58,407 nt of DNA from an uncultured Candidatus Saccharibacteria bacterium (GCA_964409225.1 CAYPCM010000004.1:1-58407), one strand, 5' to 3'; positions 11,436-52,352 are shown, numbered from the stretch's first letter. Numbers and translations are program-made. Notes: generated by a model from the letters alone, not told the origin.

Positions 11436-11507
11436 ATAATACTCTATGGCCGCGCCTGGTGCGAACGTGCTGAGCGGCCCGCCGCAGGCGGGCCGCTCGA
11501 TGAACGA

Positions 11508-11810
11508 CTACTTAAACCGGATGTCGCCATTATCCCTCGCGATGGATTCGAGGAGTTCACGGGGAGCGTCGACGAATATGCTCGGCGACCGACCCCTCGC
11601 ACGCGTCCGACCAGGTGGTCTCCCTCGCGGTCGCTCCTTTGGCGGCATTGAGCCGAATGAAACGTTGCCTCCTGCCGGCAGACGAAGCTCGAACTCAACG
11701 CCTCGCATCCGGCTTGCATCGAAAAAAGTGAGGGTGGCGGGGTCTTTCGCCCCGGGAAGGAAGATCGTCAGGGTAACCTTCGGGGAGATTCGACGCTGAA
11801 TGACGACCAT
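11508..11810 (-). CDS. Hypothetical protein
   Basis: ORF from MVVIQRR with AGGAGG SD. Confidence 0.45.
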   Translation of the reverse strand: MVVIQRRISPKVTLTIFLPGAKDPATLTFFDASRMRGVEFELRLPAGGNVSFGSMPPKERPRGRPPGRTRARGRSPSIFVDAPRELLESIARDNGDIRFK

Positions 11811-30678: not shown

Positions 30679-31875
30679 ATGTTTGAAACAGAGACCGAAC
30701 TTCAATCATCAGCCAAGAAACTCCGTACCCCCATGGCAGAGGCGTTCATCAAATTGCCAATCGCACAGGTCTTGCCTCAAATCGGCACAGTGTTGCAGGG
30801 CACGGTAATAGAAAAAGCCCCGGCCAGCATCTATGTGGACCTAGGCCTATTAGGCACGGGCATAGTGTACGGCCGCGAGTATCTGGACGCAATCGGAGTG
30901 GCGCGTAAAATGAAGGTGGGCGATAGGATTTACGCCAAGGTGATTGAGATCGAAAACGAAGACGGCTATGTGGAGCTTTCCTTGCGAGAAGCTGGACGCG
31001 AGAAAACCTGGGAGCGCTTTAACCGCTTGAAAGAAGAAGGCGAAGTCGTTTCGGTGAAAATAATTGAGGCGAATCGTGGAGGGCTCATTGCCGAAGTGGA
31101 AGGCGTGAAAGCGTTTTTGCCTGTTTCACAACTTTCGTCTGAGCACTATCCCAGAGTGGAGGGCGGCGATAAGCAAAAAATTTATTTGGAGCTTCAAAAG
31201 TTCGTGGGCAGCGACTTGCACGTAAAAGTGCTGGACGTGGATCCACGAGAAGACAAACTGATTCTCTCGGAAAAGGAGATTGAAGCCAAAGAGGTACGCG
31301 AACTCTTGAGCCACTGGCACGTGGGCGACGTTGTGGCGGGAGAAGTGTCCGGGGTCGTTGATTTCGGCGCTTTCATCAAATTCCGGGTTGACCCTGCTGA
31401 TGAAAACGCGCCGCTTGTCGAAGGGTTGGTCCACATCTCCGAACTCGACCACAAACTCATAGACGACCCCAGGACCATCGTGAAAATCGGCGACAAAATC
31501 AAGGCCGTGATCATAGGTCTTGAGGGCGGCCGAGTGTCGTTCTCGTTAAAACGCCTTAAGGAGGACCCGTGGAAAGCCGCCACCAGCAAGTACCAGAAAG
31601 GTGACGAGGTGCAGGGTGAAATCACAAAACTCAATCCCTACGGCGCCTTCGTGCGGCTCGACGAACACATCCACGGCCTGGCACACGTCTCGCAGTTCGG
31701 CTCCGAAAACGACATGCGCCGCGCGTTAGTTATCGGCAAAAACTATCAGTTCCGAATCACCGACTTAAAACCGGAAGAGCACCGGCTCGCGCTGACCCCG
31801 GTTACGCCTGAAGAGTCGTCCTCCCCCGCTCCCGCTCCAGAAACACCGGCAACGCCCACGGAGGACCATGCGTAA
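30679..31875 (+). CDS. rpsA: 30S ribosomal protein S1 (four S1 domains)
   Basis: NRGGL..AFLPVSQ, DFGAF..GLVHISE, YGAFV..GLAHVS. Confidence 0.92.
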
Positions 31876-34800
31876 TGCGTAATCTCTCCAAAAATATCCT
31901 CATTGCCGTAGGCGTGTTCCTGCTCATCGCCGCGCTCTTTGGCATGTTCGCCTCGCCTTTCTCTGAAGCGCCGAGTACGTCGCTGAAGGACTTGGTTGAA
32001 AAAATCAACTCGGGCACCGTCGAAAAAATCGTCATCAAAGGCGACACGCTCGAAGCGACGTTCACTGACGGCGCCAAAGCGCGCGTCCGCAAAGAAACCG
32101 ACGCCGCCTTTACCGAAACGATGAAAAACCTTGGGGTCAGTGAAGATCGCCTTCGCGCCGTTGATTTGAAAGTGGAAGACGATACCGGCCCGGCGTTCAT
32201 CTTCGGCACGCTTTTGCCGCTCCTCTTGCCGTTCCTGCTCATCGGTTTTTTCATCTGGTTCATGTTCCGCCAGGCGCAACGCGGCAACATGCAAGCGTTT
32301 ACCTTTTCACGCGCCCAGCCCCGGCTCGCCTCCCCACTGGACAAAAACCGCATCACTTTTGACGACGTGGCCGGCCTGCACGAAGCCAAAGAAGAACTAA
32401 AAGAAATCGTTGAGTTTTTGCGCAGCCCCAAAAAGTTCCTTGATATCGGCGCCCGCATCCCGCGAGGGGTGCTGCTCATGGGTCCGCCCGGGAGCGGCAA
32501 GACGCTACTGGCGCGGGCGGTGGCAGGTGAAGCCAGCGCGCCTTTCTTCCATATCTCCGGGTCAGAATTCGTTGAACTCTTCGTGGGCGTTGGCGCGGGT
32601 CGGGTGCGCGACCTTTTCCGCACCGCCAAACGCAATGCGCCGTCCATAATTTTCGTTGATGAAATTGACGCAGTGGGCCGCCATCGCGGCGCGGGCTTGG
32701 GCGGCGGGCACGACGAACGCGAACAAACGCTCAATCAAATCCTGGTCGAGATGGACGGTTTTGATCGCGAAACGCAAACCATAGTCATCGCGGCAAGCGT
32801 AACGGGCGATACGCCTGTACTCATCAAAAAAGGCGCGGAATGCTACCTCAGGCCCATTGCTGAAGTCGTTGATTCCTACTACCGCGACGGCGAAGAAGGG
32901 ACGGAAAAGGAGGTGCGTGGCGCCTTTGAGGTGCTCGGCTTCCGAAGCAGACCGCGCAGCCAGCAGTATTTCGATGCCGCAGTATTCCAGCCGGTGCGGA
33001 GCGTCTTCCGACACCGCGTCAATGAAATTTTCTGTGTTGAATACCTAGGAGGATCGCTCCGCGCCACGGGGAATCATTCGGTGTTTGTAAGGACGAACGG
33101 CGGAGTCAAGCCAAAAGCAGTCGAGAACCTCAAGCCAGGCGATGTGCTCGCAGATCTACCGTACACGGTGAACCGAACCCAGAAATTGAGACGGGAAACC
33201 AGAGCATATGCCTGTGCCCCAGAATTTCGCCTAGAGCTGCCAGTCTGGCAGCCGCTTTTCCAGCCGCATGAACACGTCGCCCAGGCGTACGCGTACGCCC
33301 GCAGTCACGAAGGCGAATATTCTCAACAGCACATCGGCGCGATGTTCGATGTCTCCCAGCGCACCATCGGCAAGTGGCAACAGGGGCTATGCGTGCCGCG
33401 AGCGCTCTCGCGCAACTACTTCCAGCACGCGACGATGCTCCCCGAAAGCGTACCCGTAACACCCCCGTTGATGCGGCTCTTCGGCTACTTCGTCGCCGAG
33501 GGATATGCACGCAAAGAGATCGATTTCTGTCTTGGAACGCACGAGCACACGAAGATCGCAGAGGTCAAAGGCCTCATGCAAGACATCTTTCGCCTCTCGC
33601 CAAGTAGAGAACGACGCCTCACGCCGAACGCCATCAATATCGTGTATCACTCGAAACCCCTCGCCGCATTCTTCGCCCACTACTGCGGTACCGGAGCTGC
33701 GCATAAACACCTCCCCCCATTCCTCTTCACCGCTCCCCGGGAGTACTTTGTTGAGTTTCTTAGAGGTTATTTCAATGGTGATGGACACGAAGATAGGCAC
33801 GGCCAGTTGGGGATGACTTCGATGAGCAGACGATTGATTCTGGAGCTCAACTGGCTCGCGCGGATGCACGGCTTCAAGAGCTACGTCTCTTCGTTTCGTA
33901 CCAAGGCGGGAAGACGCATCGGCCAAGGCAAACCACTGAAAGCGAGTACGGCTTGGAGAGTCGGCTTCGGGAAGACCCAGAATCCACTGCGAGTAGTCGC
34001 GGGCAAAGCGAGCACTAAGCGAGCGATTGTCCGGAGGATTACGAGGGTTCCATTCGATGGATTTGTGTATGACTTCTGCGGCTGCGAAAACGAGGCGTTC
34101 TTTGGCGGCGAATCGCCGATGTTGCTTCACAACACCAACCGCCCAGATATTTTGGACCCTGCGTTACTGCGACCGGGTCGCTTCGACCGACGAGTGGTGC
34201 TGGACGAACCGGACATAAGAGACCGCGAAGAGATCCTGAAAATACATCTTAAGTCGAAGCCCCAAGCCCGCACTGTTAACATCCGCGAACTGGCCGAGCG
34301 CACGCCGGGTTTTTCCGGCGCTGATCTCGCCAATTTGGTCAACGAAGGCGCCATCTTGGCGGCTCGCCGCGGCAAAACCTCTATCGGCCAGCGCGAACTG
34401 TTTGAATCAATTGAAAAAGTCATGCTCGGTCCTGAACGCAAAAGCCACGTGCTCACCATGCGCGAAAAGGAAATTGCGGCTTATCACGAGGCCGGCCACG
34501 CGCTTACTGCAGCGGCCCAACCAGACGCCGATCCGGTGCACAAAATTTCTATTGTTTCTCGCGGTATGGCTGCCGGCTACACGCTGAAGCTTCCGACCGA
34601 AGACCGACACCTGCATACGCGGGCACAATTCCTCGCTGATTTGGCGGTGATGCTTGGCGGCTATTCGGCCGAAGAGATTGTTTTTAACGAAATCACGACC
34701 GGCGCGGCCGACGATTTGAGGCGCGCCTCACAGCTAGCCCGCCGTTTGGTAACAAACTTCGGCATGTCCGAACGGATCGGCCCCGTTGTCTACGGCGAAA

Positions 34801-35114
34801 AAGAAGAGTTAGTATTCCTCGGCAAAGAGCTCGGCGTAGAACGCAATTACTCGGAAGAAGTGGCAGCCCTAATTGACAAAGAAGTGGAGAAATTAATCCG
34901 TGACGCCCACTCAAAGGCGCGTACAATCATCGCTGACAAACGCAATCTGCTTGATGCCATCGCCAAACAACTTAAAGTGCACGAAACCATAGAACGAAAC
35001 GAGTTCGAAAAAATCATCGCCGGCCAAGTGCCGCCCAAACGCAATCAGGAGCTCGCGCAGGTAGAGGACGATGCGGAAGAACCAACGCAGGGAACGGCTG
35101 AAGCGATCGCGTAG
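31875..35114 (+). CDS. ftsH: ATP-dependent zinc metalloprotease FtsH, intein-containing
   Basis: Two TM helices, [37 protein letters not shown]. Confidence 0.97.
32796..34133 (+). mobile_element. Intein with LAGLIDADG homing endonuclease (446 aa)
   Basis: IVIAA|SVTGDTPV...ATGNHSVF...VYDF...LLHN|TNRPD; LFGYFVAEG and [10 protein letters not shown] motifs. Confidence 0.95.
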
Positions 35115-35118
35115 CCGG

Positions 35119-35225
35119 ACGCGCCCGTTAGAAAACTTACCGTGAGCGCTTTATCTCAAGAAGTATTCCCAAGTTTGCGTACGGCCGAGTAACTCATTAC
35201 GCAGCAGGTTTTCTAACGGGCGCGT
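35119..35225. repeat. CCCGTTAGAAA/TTTCTAACGGG inverted-repeat element overlapping the tRNA 5' end
   Basis: ACGCGCCCGTTAGAAAAC (35119-35136) pairs with GTTTTCTAACGGGCGCGT (35208-35225). Confidence 0.8.
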
Positions 35226-36844: not shown

Positions 36845-36928
36845 GCGCGGGTGGCGTAACTGGTAGCCGCGCAAGGTCGAGGGCCTTGTGGGAGCAATCC
36901 CGTGGAGGTTCGAGTCCTCTCCCGCGCA
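36845..36928 (+). tRNA. tRNA-Leu(GAG)
   Basis: CAAGG-TCGAGGG-CCTTG (C at position 33), long variable arm. Confidence 0.88.
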
Positions 36929-36980
36929 CAACGCTAAGCGTTGTTTCGGGCGCGCTCAGCGTGCCACCAACAACTAATCC

Positions 36981-37666: not shown

Positions 37667-38200
37667 ATGACCATCGGCATTATCTCCGACACTCACGACC
37701 GGCTCGATACGCTCGAGCGCGCTGTACAGACATTCAAGCAACACGGCGTTAAGCTGGTGGTGCATTGCGGCGACTGGATCGCGCCTTTCACCGTGGCCAA
37801 AATTGTTTCTCTTGTTCGCGACGAACTCAATTGCCCGCTTAAGGGCGTGTTTGGCAACAACGACGGCGACCTGTTCTATATTCTCACACAAAATTACGCC
37901 CAGGGCTGGAACATCGAATTTTCGGATACAATTTTGGAGCTTGAATTCGACGGCCGGAAGATCGCGGTTTATCACGGCACCGATCAAGCCGTCACCGCTT
38001 CGCTCATCGCTTCAAAACGCTACGCTGCCGTCTTCACCGGCCACACGCACGCGCCTCTAAACGAGGCCAAAGACGGCATCCTGCATTTGAACCCGGGCAG
38101 CACCTCGTACCTCCGCAACGGCTCTATTATTGACGAAGCGACGGTGGCTGTGTACGATACGGAAGCGCATACCGCACAAATCATCGCCCTTGATTCGTGA
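37667..38200 (+). CDS. YfcE/MJ0936-family metallophosphoesterase
   Basis: SDTHD, HCGD, GNND, YHG, GHTH, NPGS. Confidence 0.92.
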   Translation: MTIGIISDTHDRLDTLERAVQTFKQHGVKLVVHCGDWIAPFTVAKIVSLVRDELNCPLKGVFGNNDGDLFYILTQNYAQGWNIEFSDTILELEFDGRKIAVYHGTDQAVTASLIASKRYAAVFTGHTHAPLNEAKDGILHLNPGSTSYLRNGSIIDEATVAVYDTEAHTAQIIALDS

Positions 38201-38235
38201 TTTTTAATTCGTTATTCGATGTTCTTTCGTAATCT

Positions 38236-38417
38236 GCCTGGGTAGCTCAGTGGTACCTGCCTGCCGGCAGGCAGGGAGCGCCCAGCACCTTTTACCGCCG
38301 GACTAGCTCATTGGTAGAGCGCTTCCCTGAAGAGGAAGGCGTACCCAGTTCGATTCTGGGGTCCGGCACAATATCCAAAAGGTGCTGGGGTGTCGGGGGT
38401 TCGACCCCCCCCAGGCA
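38236..38417 (+). pseudogene. Interrupted outer tRNA (Phe-like body) enclosing an intact tRNA-Phe
   Basis: Acceptor GCCTGGG/CCCAGGC-A, D arm with 20-nt palindrome insert, anticodon arm replaced by CCCAGCACCTTTT/AAAAGGTGCTGGG stem, GTGTC-GGGGG-TTCGA T arm 2 nt short. Confidence 0.8.
38297..38368 (+). tRNA. tRNA-Phe(GAA), nested
   Basis: Acceptor GCCGGAC/GTCCGGC, CTTCC-CTGAAGA-GGAAG. Confidence 0.92.
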
Positions 38418-38468
38418 CTTGAATCAGTTAAAAGTTAAAAATGAAAAGTTAATAGAAGCTATTTAATC

Positions 38469-38567
38469 ATGGCCACGGAAGAAAAACTCCTTATTGGTTT
38501 TGGTATTTTTATAGGGATCGTCGTCGGCGGATTCATCGGGGCGCTCGCCGGCAAATTCCTTTTATGA
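38469..38567 (+). CDS. 32-aa single-TM Gly-rich peptide
   Basis: MATEEKLLIGFGIFIGIVVGGFIGALAGKFLL*, ATGA-coupled to the next ORF. Confidence 0.55.
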   Translation: MATEEKLLIGFGIFIGIVVGGFIGALAGKFLL

Positions 38568-38776
38568 ATGGCGAACGCCAAACCGCGCTCGCCCAAAAGC
38601 TTGCCGAGTTAGAAACCGAACTTGCGGGAATACGCAAACTCAAATCCGAAGCGCTTGAAGCGGGTGGAAACGGTTGGCACGACAATGCGAGCTATGACAT
38701 TGTGGTCCAAGATGAATACCGCCTATTGAGAAAAATCGCCGAACTGAAGGCAAAAGTCCAAGCGACGCGGGGTTAA
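38564..38776 (+). CDS. Small coiled-coil hairpin protein resembling the GreA/GreB N-terminal domain
   Basis: Helix-GGNGWHDNASYD-helix (compare GDLSENAEY). Confidence 0.6.
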   Translation: MNGERQTALAQKLAELETELAGIRKLKSEALEAGGNGWHDNASYDIVVQDEYRLLRKIAELKAKVQATRG

Positions 38777-38842
38777 ATCTGCTGCTATTGTATAACTGTA
38801 CCCAATACACTAGCATCAGACATATGTATATTGGGTTCAGTT

Positions 38843-39496
38843 ATGCGCAAAGATAAACTGCGTGCGATAGCCCTTAGAAAACGCGGCTATAGCTACAACA
38901 ATATCAGGAGAAAGCTCAGCGTACCAAAAAGTACGCTGTCAGCGTGGTTCTCGCCATTCGCTTGGTCCAACGTTATTAGGCGAGACCTAACGCGACGATC
39001 ATTCGAAAAAGTATATCCGCAACTACGAGCTATGGCTCGCGCTCGAGCGGTGATGTGGGCTAAGTGGCGCGCCGAAGCTCGTAAGGAAGCGACAGGGGAA
39101 TTCAAGAAGCTTGCTAGTGATCCGCTGTTCATTGCCGGAGTAATGCTTTATTGGGGAGAAGGCGACAAAAATCCAGTAAATCCAGTGAGAATCTCTAATA
39201 CAGATTCGCGCCTCGTACGCATCTTCGTTGAGTTTCTTCAAAAGAGCTGTGGTCTGCCGAAAGAGAAAGTGAAAGCCAACCTCATTCTTTATCCAGATCT
39301 GAATGAACAGATGAGCAAAAAATACTGGTCCTCGACCACAACCATCCCTGAAGAATCATTTACGAAAACTCAGTTTATCAAGGGCAGGCATAAGACCAAA
39401 AGGTTAAGCTACGGCATCTGTGTAGTGAGTGTTTCAAGTAGGCAATTGAAAGAAAAAGTTCTGACATGGATCGAAAGTTTCGCCCACAGATTATGA
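38843..39496 (+). CDS. HTH plus LAGLIDADG-like protein abutting tRNA-Gly
   Basis: LRKRGYSY..I...L.VPKSTLS.W HTH; GVMLYWGEGDK; ISNTD. Confidence 0.75.
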   Translation: MRKDKLRAIALRKRGYSYNNIRRKLSVPKSTLSAWFSPFAWSNVIRRDLTRRSFEKVYPQLRAMARARAVMWAKWRAEARKEATGEFKKLASDPLFIAGVMLYWGEGDKNPVNPVRISNTDSRLVRIFVEFLQKSCGLPKEKVKANLILYPDLNEQMSKKYWSSTTTIPEESFTKTQFIKGRHKTKRLSYGICVVSVSSRQLKEKVLTWIESFAHRL

Positions 39497-39634: not shown

Positions 39635-39711
39635 ACCCCGTTAGAAAACACGATGGTCCCGGCAGATCGACAAACAAAAGGAAGTATAAGCCACGAGTTT
39701 TCTAATGTGGT
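39635..39711. repeat. Degenerate ACCCCGTTAGAAAAC inverted-repeat element
   Basis: ACCCCGTTAGAAAACACG...CGAGTTTTCTAATGTGGT. Confidence 0.65.
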
Positions 39712-39806: not shown

Positions 39807-39905
39807 CCCCATACCAAATCTCTAAGCTCAGGAATCTCAGCAAAACTGCTTACTATTTAGCGTCCTAGAGCCAAAAACGCCAAGCTAGCGCTATTTGGTA
39901 CGGGG
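39807..39905. repeat. CCCCATACCAAAT/ATTTGGTACGGGG inverted-repeat element in 5' UTR
   Basis: Arms at 39807-39819 and 39893-39905. Confidence 0.65.
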
Positions 39906-51906: not shown

Positions 51907-52037
51907 ATTCGTCTTACTAGCTGATAGACCCTATCAGTCCTATTGGTCTTATTAGTCCTATCGGCCTTATTTGACTTATCCGTCCTATCGCCCCAGCAGA
52001 TACAACTGCTTCACCTCTTGAGCCGTCAGCGCGCGGT

Positions 52038-52295
52038 TTACCCCGTGAAATACGATTTGAGGCGTCTACGCAAAAACATTTTGCCCCTATACGATTTTAA
52101 AACTCGCTCTCTCCTGCTCGCATCATCTTGTTTCTTACACGCTTCATAATAAATGAGCTCAAGCGGCCTGCGATCTTTTGTTGACTCAACCCATCCTTTC
52201 TGGTGTTCCTCAAATCGTGATTGTAAATTTTTTGTATAACCAGTATAAAGTTGCTTGTCTTTATGGCTAAAAAGTACGTATGTGTAGTAAAACAT
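52038..52295 (-). CDS. GIY-YIG nuclease (small standalone)
   Basis: YTYVL..LYTGYT..L..RF.EH..G...TK.RRP.ELIYYE....A..RE..LK. Confidence 0.93.
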   Translation of the reverse strand: MFYYTYVLFSHKDKQLYTGYTKNLQSRFEEHQKGWVESTKDRRPLELIYYEACKKQDDASRRERVLKSYRGKMFLRRRLKSYFTG

Positions 52296-52331
52296 ATTCT
52301 GTTGCAAAAAATTTACAATATTTCACGGGGT
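52040..52331. mobile_element. GIY-YIG mini-element with 13-bp terminal inverted repeats
   Basis: ACCCCGTGAAATA (52040-52052) / TATTTCACGGGGT (52319-52331). Confidence 0.8.
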
Positions 52332-52352
52332 GGAGATGCGGACTTGTTATAA

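Follow-up and report, generated by a model that had tools for sequence, protein, structure and literature searches.

A complete phenylalanine transfer RNA gene nested within a disrupted one in a Saccharibacteria genome: probable insertion of an inverted-repeat cassette carrying a replacement gene

In a 58,407-nucleotide stretch of DNA from an uncultured Candidatus Saccharibacteria bacterium (the window; contig C4 of genome G000, 883 kb in 60 contigs, 98% complete), an intact transfer RNA (tRNA) gene, tRNA-Phe(GAA), was found between the two halves of another tRNA-Phe gene at 38236–38417. The locus is read, with a probability of about 0.7, as the self-compensating insertion of a cassette that resembles a miniature inverted-repeat transposable element (MITE) and carries a replacement tRNA: a unit of about 109 bp, composed of 13-bp terminal inverted repeats and a complete tRNA-Phe(GAA), would have invaded the resident tRNA-Phe gene and would now stand in place of the outer anticodon arm. 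An earlier note on this DNA had proposed the delivery of a replacement tRNA by an inverted-repeat element; the resident outer gene, the newcomer inner gene, the multi-copy repeat and the recurrence of nests were all observed, and the movement of repeat and tRNA as one unit is the part that is deduced.

The nested architecture was recovered feature by feature at the positions proposed before, the perfect 20-nt palindrome in the outer D-loop included (Table 1). The inner gene gave a full-length cloverleaf with an anticodon, was called as Phe GAA by ARAGORN and matched the Rfam tRNA model RF00005 with 60.8 bits (gathering score 29; model positions 1–71 of 71 covered). The outer body does not form a functional tRNA: nt 27–43 are wholly missing, so that the anticodon loop cannot be rebuilt, as had been described, and the T loop has 5 nt vs 7 in the congeneric genome G001, which agrees with the T arm having been described as 2 nt short. 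The outer D-stem with nt 26 directly abuts the repeat, and the repeat directly abuts the variable loop. The two repeat arms (13 nt each, 100% complementary) are spaced by 83 nt, and the stem of 13 bp that they form is present and perfect, as first described; its assignment to the outer anticodon arm was given up because the stem belongs to a family-wide terminal repeat (see below), CCCAG/CTGGG being the base of that repeat and the outer anticodon arm being absent. Among the 45 ARAGORN tRNAs of G000 with enough flanking sequence, perfect flanking stems of 13 bp were found in two (Phe and Val CAC) and of 11 bp in one; random 73-nt windows had a flanking stem of at least 13 bp in 7 of 20,000 cases. 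The stem-flanked arrangement is not a chance one. For the RNA of 182 nt a double cloverleaf is the predicted fold (−98.1 kcal/mol; z = −5.36; equally stable shuffles, 0/200).

The outer body is the resident tRNA-Phe gene. In G001, the only congeneric genome compared (94% complete), a tRNA-Phe gene lies at the syntenic site, between the orthologue of the upstream phosphoesterase (79% amino acid identity) and common downstream small open reading frames (ORFs). Its acceptor stem is identical to that of the outer body, and the outer halves agree with its exons at 24/25 positions on the 5' side (38236–38255 plus 38276–38280) and at 26/28 on the 3' side, the differences including the 2-nt T-loop deletion of G000. 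The G001 gene is broken after U33 by a 269-nt insert, which is a group I intron (RF00028; 56.3 bits vs a gathering score of 50; E = 6.7e-12), and ARAGORN called tRNA-Phe(GAA) after the exons had been joined by script. In position and in sequence the outer body thus corresponds to the G001 tRNA-Phe gene; because of the synteny, the exon matches and the T-loop deletion it is taken as an orthologue in decay, the G001 gene itself still looking functional.

A genuine group I intron at this very gene in G001 suggests that the insert of G000 might be intron-like as well, removed from the transcript with joining of the outer exons to a second functional tRNA, so that one locus would give two tRNAs; insertions into the anticodon loop of Val nests, with the flanking loop nucleotides partly kept, point the same way. 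This explanation is nevertheless very improbable, as the Phe outer body retains no anticodon-loop nucleotides and has a defective T loop. At the cassette borders no bulge-helix-bulge was found, the helix being continuous and perfect over 13 bp; the Rfam search of the window at gathering score returned only tRNAs, with no ribozyme core in the Phe cassette, and no group I intron (RF00028) was found above the cut-off in G000, where the best match (22.3 bits) lies on another contig.

The inner gene is a newcomer at the Phe site. It is the sole tRNA-Phe among the 46 ARAGORN tRNAs of G000, and pairwise identities were used for its comparison with the outer body and with the genes of relatives: 52/72 to the tRNA-Phe of G001, 69/72 to that of G014, and 66/72 in the case of both G017 and G009. 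The last three genomes (G014, G017, G009) are from other families of the class. Inner and outer genes agree at 21/25 and 15/28 positions, with differences in every stem. No counterpart of the inner gene was found in G001, the only match there being the D-arm region of the intron-bearing tRNA-Phe. The two sister genomes differ by presence and absence at the Phe locus (cassette in G000, intron in G001) and again at a Pro locus (nested in G001, plain in G000).

The repeat is a multi-copy and widely distributed family with tRNA or non-tRNA cargo. A nested tRNA-Val of G154 has repeat arms that differ by 1 nt from those of the Phe nest. The pattern CCCMGCACC-N75-105-GGTGCKGGG, written for this repeat subtype, matched 48 of the 401 class genomes (at most 9 copies in any one); the reversed pattern, used as control, gave 0. 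At least ten isotypes are enclosed by the subtype (by sequence: Val, Phe, Arg, Pro, Ser, Leu, Met/Ile-CAU, Ala, Thr and Asp), and other interiors consist of a non-tRNA module of about 80 nt with a conserved small hairpin. Where the interior was confirmed by ARAGORN (Arg, Met, Leu, Pro three times, Phe, Ser, Ala), outer tRNA remnants were recognised by eye in 9/9 loci, one of which is a T-loop insertion (L221) and one a triple nest (L241). G000 itself has eight or more copies of a related CCCCGTTAGA-type element; in four of these the arms are exactly 83 nt apart, the spacing of both window nests. Two candidate identities were dropped: the outer body as the missing tRNA-Lys(UUU), from TTTT in the left arm, since the arm is the family-wide terminal repeat and the G001 gene is Phe; and an integron attC-like site, since the arms stand in opposite order and the other repeat subtype is without the motif (GTTAGAT/ATCTAAC, which resembles the attC core sites). 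A MITE-like family with TTGACCCCGTTAGAAGTC-type terminal repeats and an interior of about 83 nt was also seen, in the window at 35119–35225 and at the two non-tRNA copies of Table 1, and elsewhere in G000 on contigs C1, C9, C11, C12, C13, C16 and C45; on C9 two such copies flank a small tRNA cluster.

Nests in which inner and outer genes share the isoacceptor recur, with as many as three levels. From two cases within 6 kb the earlier note had argued for a mechanism, and it had advised scanning relatives for a tRNA half, an inverted repeat, a full tRNA, the repeat again and the second half. The second case is real and is one of the tRNA-Val nests that occur across the class, G000 has three nests (Phe, Val-CAC and Gly-CCC), and similar nests with many isoacceptors were met in many genomes of the class. 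Two-sided matches to the nested Val unit were obtained in at least 17/401 genomes, among the matches listed, and one Val nest was found in a single-contig genome (G019). Twenty-two Val loci were read by eye: remnants stood on both sides in 16 and on one side in 6, all three Val isoacceptors were represented, the anticodon remnant of the outer fragment was always equal to the inner anticodon, and truncations or hairpin insertions of the outer D- or T-loop were present in 12. The ten loci that were aligned, a choice by eye of the cleanest among the 22, have the cassette entering after anticodon nt 35, with invariant junctions TTCA-CCCC...GGGG-CAAG. Further nests are those of Ile-UAU (L102), Thr-UGU (L147) and Asn (L057), in the last of which a GIY-YIG ORF separates the outer 5' part from the cassette and the break points are those of the Phe nest (after nt 26 and before nt 44). 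Triple nests were found at L211 (G185) and L241 (G337), and the inner and outer acceptor stems differ in all nests read. At L211, L241 and L209 (G155), three-level nests or two successive 3' fragments after one tRNA were seen, piles that indicate repeated rounds of replacement at one locus.

The course of events proposed for the Phe locus is as follows. The insertion would not have been lethal because the cassette brings the same isoacceptor. Afterwards the outer gene would have decayed (loss of the anticodon arm, a T loop 2 nt short, the 20-nt palindrome in the D-loop), the old gene collecting further small palindromic insertions in its loops. The inner gene is presumably transcribed inside the old transcription unit, from which ribonuclease P and 3' processing would excise it; a promoter and terminator scan of 38120–38520 was uninformative, no terminator being found and the only two promoter-like sites being weak and within the upstream gene. 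Because the inner gene is the only tRNA-Phe found in the genome, the host could no longer lose the cassette. In genomes with single-copy tRNAs only insertions of the same isoacceptor would survive, and such selection for compensation would explain why the inner and outer anticodons always match.

Several observations weigh against insertion of a tRNA cassette or leave it incomplete. At the Phe locus no transposase, integrase or nuclease gene and no ORF within the insert was found; no target-site duplication was seen by eye at the borders of the Phe locus or of the Val nests, a systematic transposase search not having been made; the exact CCCCGTTAGA-type repeat pattern gave 0 matches in viral contigs; and no pair of empty and filled alleles was found within one species. 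The plain tRNA-Pro of G000 resembles the inner and not the outer tRNA-Pro of G001. In the ten aligned Val nests, pairing of the outer stems is 95.7–98%, with compensatory changes in 38 of 55 pairs, and the outer halves are no more diverged than the inner tRNAs (0.69 vs 0.705). The Val nest of the window is 98% identical in G001 over 174 nt that span the outer halves, the repeat, the leader and the trailer, the D-loop insertion being absent there and the flanks being unalignable. Finally, inner tRNAs often agree in the anticodon stem or the T arm with the outer halves around them, at up to 31/35 positions. Confidence in the insertion is not put higher because of the paired Val outer stems, the equal divergence, the near-identical Val nest, the likeness of inner and outer parts and the Pro locus; in view of these misfits, the shell may have kept a role, inner and outer genes may have undergone gene conversion, or re-insertion may have been frequent and recent.

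With paired stems and no excess divergence the outer Val halves do not look like long-dead relics, and the same data fit constraint, gene conversion or repeated recent insertion. Constraint would be expected if the shell had been re-used, its halves and the repeat stem being kept for the folding, excision or protection of the inner tRNA precursor, or forming a two-piece tRNA-like RNA with a job of its own. To the pairing and the near-identity of the Val nest, leader and trailer included, can be added on this side the repeat stem, 97.5% paired in its proximal 8 bp in the ten Val nests (slid controls, 35–46%), and the predicted double cloverleaf of the Phe locus. Such re-use, which is compatible with an origin by insertion, is judged unlikely: the outer body of the Phe locus has its T loop 2 nt short and a 20-nt palindrome in its D-loop, the halves are truncated or invaded by hairpins in 12/22 Val nests and one half is absent in 6/22, and covariation among genomes may predate each insertion, the ten aligned loci being moreover the cleanest.

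The segments shared by inner and outer genes could mean local duplication or conversion instead of import. The inner tRNA would then derive from the resident gene inside a hairpin element inserted already, and no tRNA cassette would have moved. The anticodon stem, variable loop and T arm are shared in this manner in G337 (27/31 and 31/35) and G321 (29/32 and 30/35), the outer 3' fragment of L194 repeats the inner 3' part, and non-tRNA copies of the repeat are common, so that empty shells do exist. At the Phe locus, though, the inner gene differs from the outer one in every stem and has 96% identity with a tRNA-Phe from a different family; the difference of the acceptor stems holds for all nests read, and no simple route of duplication to a complete co-oriented copy inside a hairpin was seen. 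A local origin is therefore considered distinctly improbable.

The assembly was considered as well. Contigs from four public DNA runs (a single study) showed 0 differences over 38015–38280 and 38341–38725, and they reproduce the run of eight C, the checking of which near 38405–38412 had been recommended, without differences; this run is thus not an obvious assembly slip. The segment 38281–38340 was bridged in none of the public contig pieces listed, a further point to be set against the insertion reading, and tRNA k-mers are repeated in metagenomes, so that a chimeric join of two tRNA-Phe loci in this metagenome-assembled genome might be suspected. The chance of such an artefact is put close to nil: both outer halves occupy exactly the site of the G001 tRNA-Phe and share its flanks, the inner gene lies symmetrically between the perfect 13-bp repeat arms, two independent assemblies contain the Val nest, and the architecture was met in dozens of genomes, the single-contig one among them.

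Table 1. Positions of the nested tRNA loci and of associated elements (window coordinates unless a contig is named)
Feature	Position	Strand	Remarks
Outer (resident) tRNA-Phe, 5' part: acceptor 5' strand (7 nt), TA = nt 8–9, D-stem 5' strand, D-loop	38236–38255	+	
Perfect 20-nt palindrome CCTGCCTGCCGGCAGGCAGG in outer D-loop	38256–38275	strandless	
Outer D-stem 3' strand and nt 26 (GAGCG)	38276–38280	+	
Cassette inverted repeat, left arm CCCAGCACCTTTT	38281–38293	+	13 nt, 100%
Leader of inner tRNA (ACC)	38294–38296	+	3 nt
Inner intact tRNA-Phe(GAA), CCA not encoded	38297–38368 (/9)	+	ARAGORN; Rfam RF00005
Trailer of inner tRNA	38369–38376	+	8 nt
Cassette inverted repeat, right arm AAAAGGTGCTGGG	38377–38389	+	
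Outer tRNA-Phe, 3' part: variable loop, T arm with 2-nt loop deletion, acceptor 3' strand, discriminator A	38390–38417	+	
Second nest: outer tRNA-Val(CAC) halves around cassette	43933–44205	−	
Val nest, repeat arms	44071–44083, 43975–43987	−	
Val nest, inner tRNA-Val(CAC)	43995–44066	−	
Val nest, hairpin-rich insertion in outer D-loop	44104–44190	−	about 87 nt; G000-specific
Third nest: tRNA-Gly CCC	G000 C1:78620–78815		
Two non-tRNA copies of the inverted-repeat family	39636–39711, 39807–39905	strandless	
Small GIY-YIG nuclease gene	52065–52292	−	Pfam PF01541, E = 7.1e-15
12-bp inverted repeat around GIY-YIG gene, arm CCCCGTGAAATA	52041–52052, 52319–52330	−	CCCCGT type; unit 52036–52340 (−)

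The palindrome of the outer D-loop is a pan-bacterial element in its own right, linked with GIY-YIG genes. G000 has one copy, none was present in G001 among the matches listed, and several copies were found in each of at least 18 of the 60 other relatives listed. There it makes up the invariant core of intergenic repeats (L022–L040; G038, G041, G031, G058 and others), the flanks of which are constant within a genome and different between genomes (25 matches in G038). A species scan, with one genome per species, gave at least 120 palindrome loci; at 50 of the 120 loci listed (51 matches) this 20-mer is located within the D-loop of a tRNA 5' fragment. The 80 records listed, most of them metagenome-assembled genomes, cover Patescibacteria, Omnitrophota, Planctomycetota, Gammaproteobacteria, WOR-3, Bdellovibrionales and cultured strains of Bacteroidota. 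A complete tRNA on the same strand follows the fragment within 800 nt in 37/51 matches, with a small GIY-YIG ORF between the two in 18 and the tRNA only in 19; the ORF is present in 23 of the 51 fragments altogether, and several fragments are an exact copy of the 5' part of the downstream tRNA gene. The ORFs comprise 79–96 amino acids in the examples (the Pfam GIY-YIG domain has 78 positions), one of them matched PF01541 with E = 3.9e-14, and no NCBIfam model was found for the small GIY-YIG ORF. Compared with this palindrome-marked type, the Phe locus has the palindrome and the complete tRNA, the ORF being absent. Viral contigs contained 6 matches to the palindrome: one (L251) is a tRNA fragment with a GIY-YIG ORF and five look like chance GC-rich matches.

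Related arrangements were observed elsewhere. On contig C9 of G000, at about 11440–11520 (−), a complete tRNA-Arg(UCU) is immediately preceded by a 5' fragment of the same tRNA that has no palindrome; the palindrome is present at the homologous Arg locus of another Patescibacteria genome (L047). At L060, L008 (G026), L205 and L208 a second small palindromic element, with the ends TCCCGATG...CATCGGGA, was seen inserted in loops of tRNA fragments, as were other hairpins. Such insertions seem to favour the D, anticodon and T loops of tRNA halves that have been abandoned.

At its widest, the proposal is that in a class of Patescibacteria cassettes of about 110 bp, not described before, with inverted repeats and able to carry a complete tRNA, insert into the loops of cognate tRNA genes (for Val between anticodon nt 35 and 36), kill and replace the resident gene and make the host dependent on them, which would amount to addiction without a toxin, with nests up to three deep. 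The palindrome and the minimal GIY-YIG nuclease would be a second component, in which tRNA 5' fragments of groups ranging from Patescibacteria to Bacteroidota, Omnitrophota and Planctomycetota bear a strictly conserved palindrome, and which may be the nuclease arm of the same or of a parallel replacement system. For this wider proposal the odds are regarded as even.

Candidates for the mobilising enzyme are small GIY-YIG nucleases or a tRNA-adjacent ORF with helix-turn-helix and LAGLIDADG-like features. A gene of the former kind within the window is bordered by a related 12-bp inverted repeat (Table 1). This unit, a candidate relative of the cassette family, sits right after the stop codon of a gene with LamG-like repeats and is followed by a 17-amino acid duplicate of the C-terminal end of that gene; by analogy, the logic of replacing what is displaced would here apply to a protein gene. 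The ORF 38831–39496 (+; 221 amino acids) gave weak, sub-threshold helix-turn-helix matches and shows a LAGLIDADG-like motif by eye; it ends 2 nt before tRNA-Gly(GCC) in G000, and its G001 homologue (L167) ends about 20 nt before the intron-bearing tRNA-Phe. Judged from its sequence, it looks like a free-standing, tRNA-adjacent and possibly mobile gene.

Some further features of G000 were recorded. The FtsH gene, 31875–35114 (+), has an in-frame intein-like insert at about 32790–34130 with a LAGLIDADG domain (Pfam LAGLIDADG_3, E = 4e-7; Intein_splicing below the cut-off). ARAGORN gave no tRNA-Lys(UUU), Asn(GUU) or Gly(UCC) in G000 and one CAU tRNA only; the missing genes may be interrupted or lie in assembly gaps, an orphan 3' half at C20:9670–9693 being a lead. 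ARAGORN probably miscalled tRNA-Thr(cgt) at 40855–40928 (−), a position within a long open frame for which the Rfam table has no entry; its Leu(gag), 36845–36929 (+), is likewise absent from the Rfam table at gathering score.

Known systems share parts of this architecture. Group I introns in the anticodon loops of bacterial tRNAs, of which the G001 orthologue is an instance, interrupt the anticodon region as the Phe nest does; unlike them, the Phe insert is about 109 bp long, has no ribozyme core and has a complete tRNA between perfect inverted repeats, and the outer gene cannot be restored by splicing. MITEs and the REP-like (repetitive extragenic palindromic) palindromic repeats are small, non-coding and present in many copies per genome, with terminal inverted repeats. 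The Phe cassette has these same properties, being small, without an ORF, multi-copy and with terminal inverted repeats; it differs from MITEs in that its cargo can be a (predicted) functional tRNA, its target is the cognate tRNA gene, no target-site duplication was seen and, short of a systematic search, no partner transposase was found. Integrative elements (those of phage, plasmid or integrative and conjugative element integrases) insert in tRNA genes and bring with them a copy of the tRNA portion that they displace. Their self-compensation, which keeps the target tRNA functional, is like that of the cassette. They are, however, kilobases long, encode an integrase, copy the 3' part only and leave one intact gene, whereas the cassette is of about 109 bp, non-coding and with a whole tRNA, and leaves both old halves; the Phe insert, which has no ORF and in which both old halves flank a whole new gene, is accordingly not an integrase-type element with a tRNA attachment site.

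In the disrupted tRNA genes of archaea and eukaryotes (with multiple introns, split or permuted), inserted DNA likewise breaks tRNA genes, and 5' fragments stand beside a functional copy; for those of Caldiarchaeum, a mobile element has been proposed as the cause (PMC3293823). There, a bulge-helix-bulge endonuclease or joining in trans rebuilds one tRNA, whereas in the nests the host is bacterial, the outer gene is abandoned, a complete gene of the same anticodon lies inside and the process is recursive. SegB of phages T4 and T6 is a GIY-YIG homing endonuclease of tRNA gene clusters (PMC2330249, PMC13096335), so that a GIY-YIG nuclease occurs together with tRNA genes and duplicated tRNA segments, as at the palindrome loci; nested genes or a conserved palindrome are not reported in the portions consulted of PMC13096335 and PMC2330249, and the Phe locus is without a GIY-YIG ORF. 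A complete replacement tRNA on a non-coding inverted-repeat unit of about 110 bp, its insertion in the cognate gene and recursive nesting are combined in none of the precedents compared. Nested bacterial tRNA genes were not described in the titles and abstracts met in the literature that was searched, which concerned organelles, archaea, red algae and phage SegB, most subscription journals and supplements lying outside its coverage, and a literature search with the string of the 20-nt palindrome returned 0 papers.

If the insertion reading is true, a mobile element that brings its own substitute turns over tRNA genes in ultra-small bacteria, which would be a new way for a selfish element to become irreplaceable and would give a new kind of disrupted bacterial tRNA gene. 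Odd tRNA annotations, such as orphan halves and apparently missing isoacceptors, would be explained, and long-standing ideas on the splitting and interruption of tRNA genes would become directly testable. Together, the 20-nt palindrome and the minimal GIY-YIG nuclease may amount to a site-specific nuclease system, which would be of practical interest. For the bacteria themselves, the cassettes would provide a route for the horizontal replacement of core components of translation.

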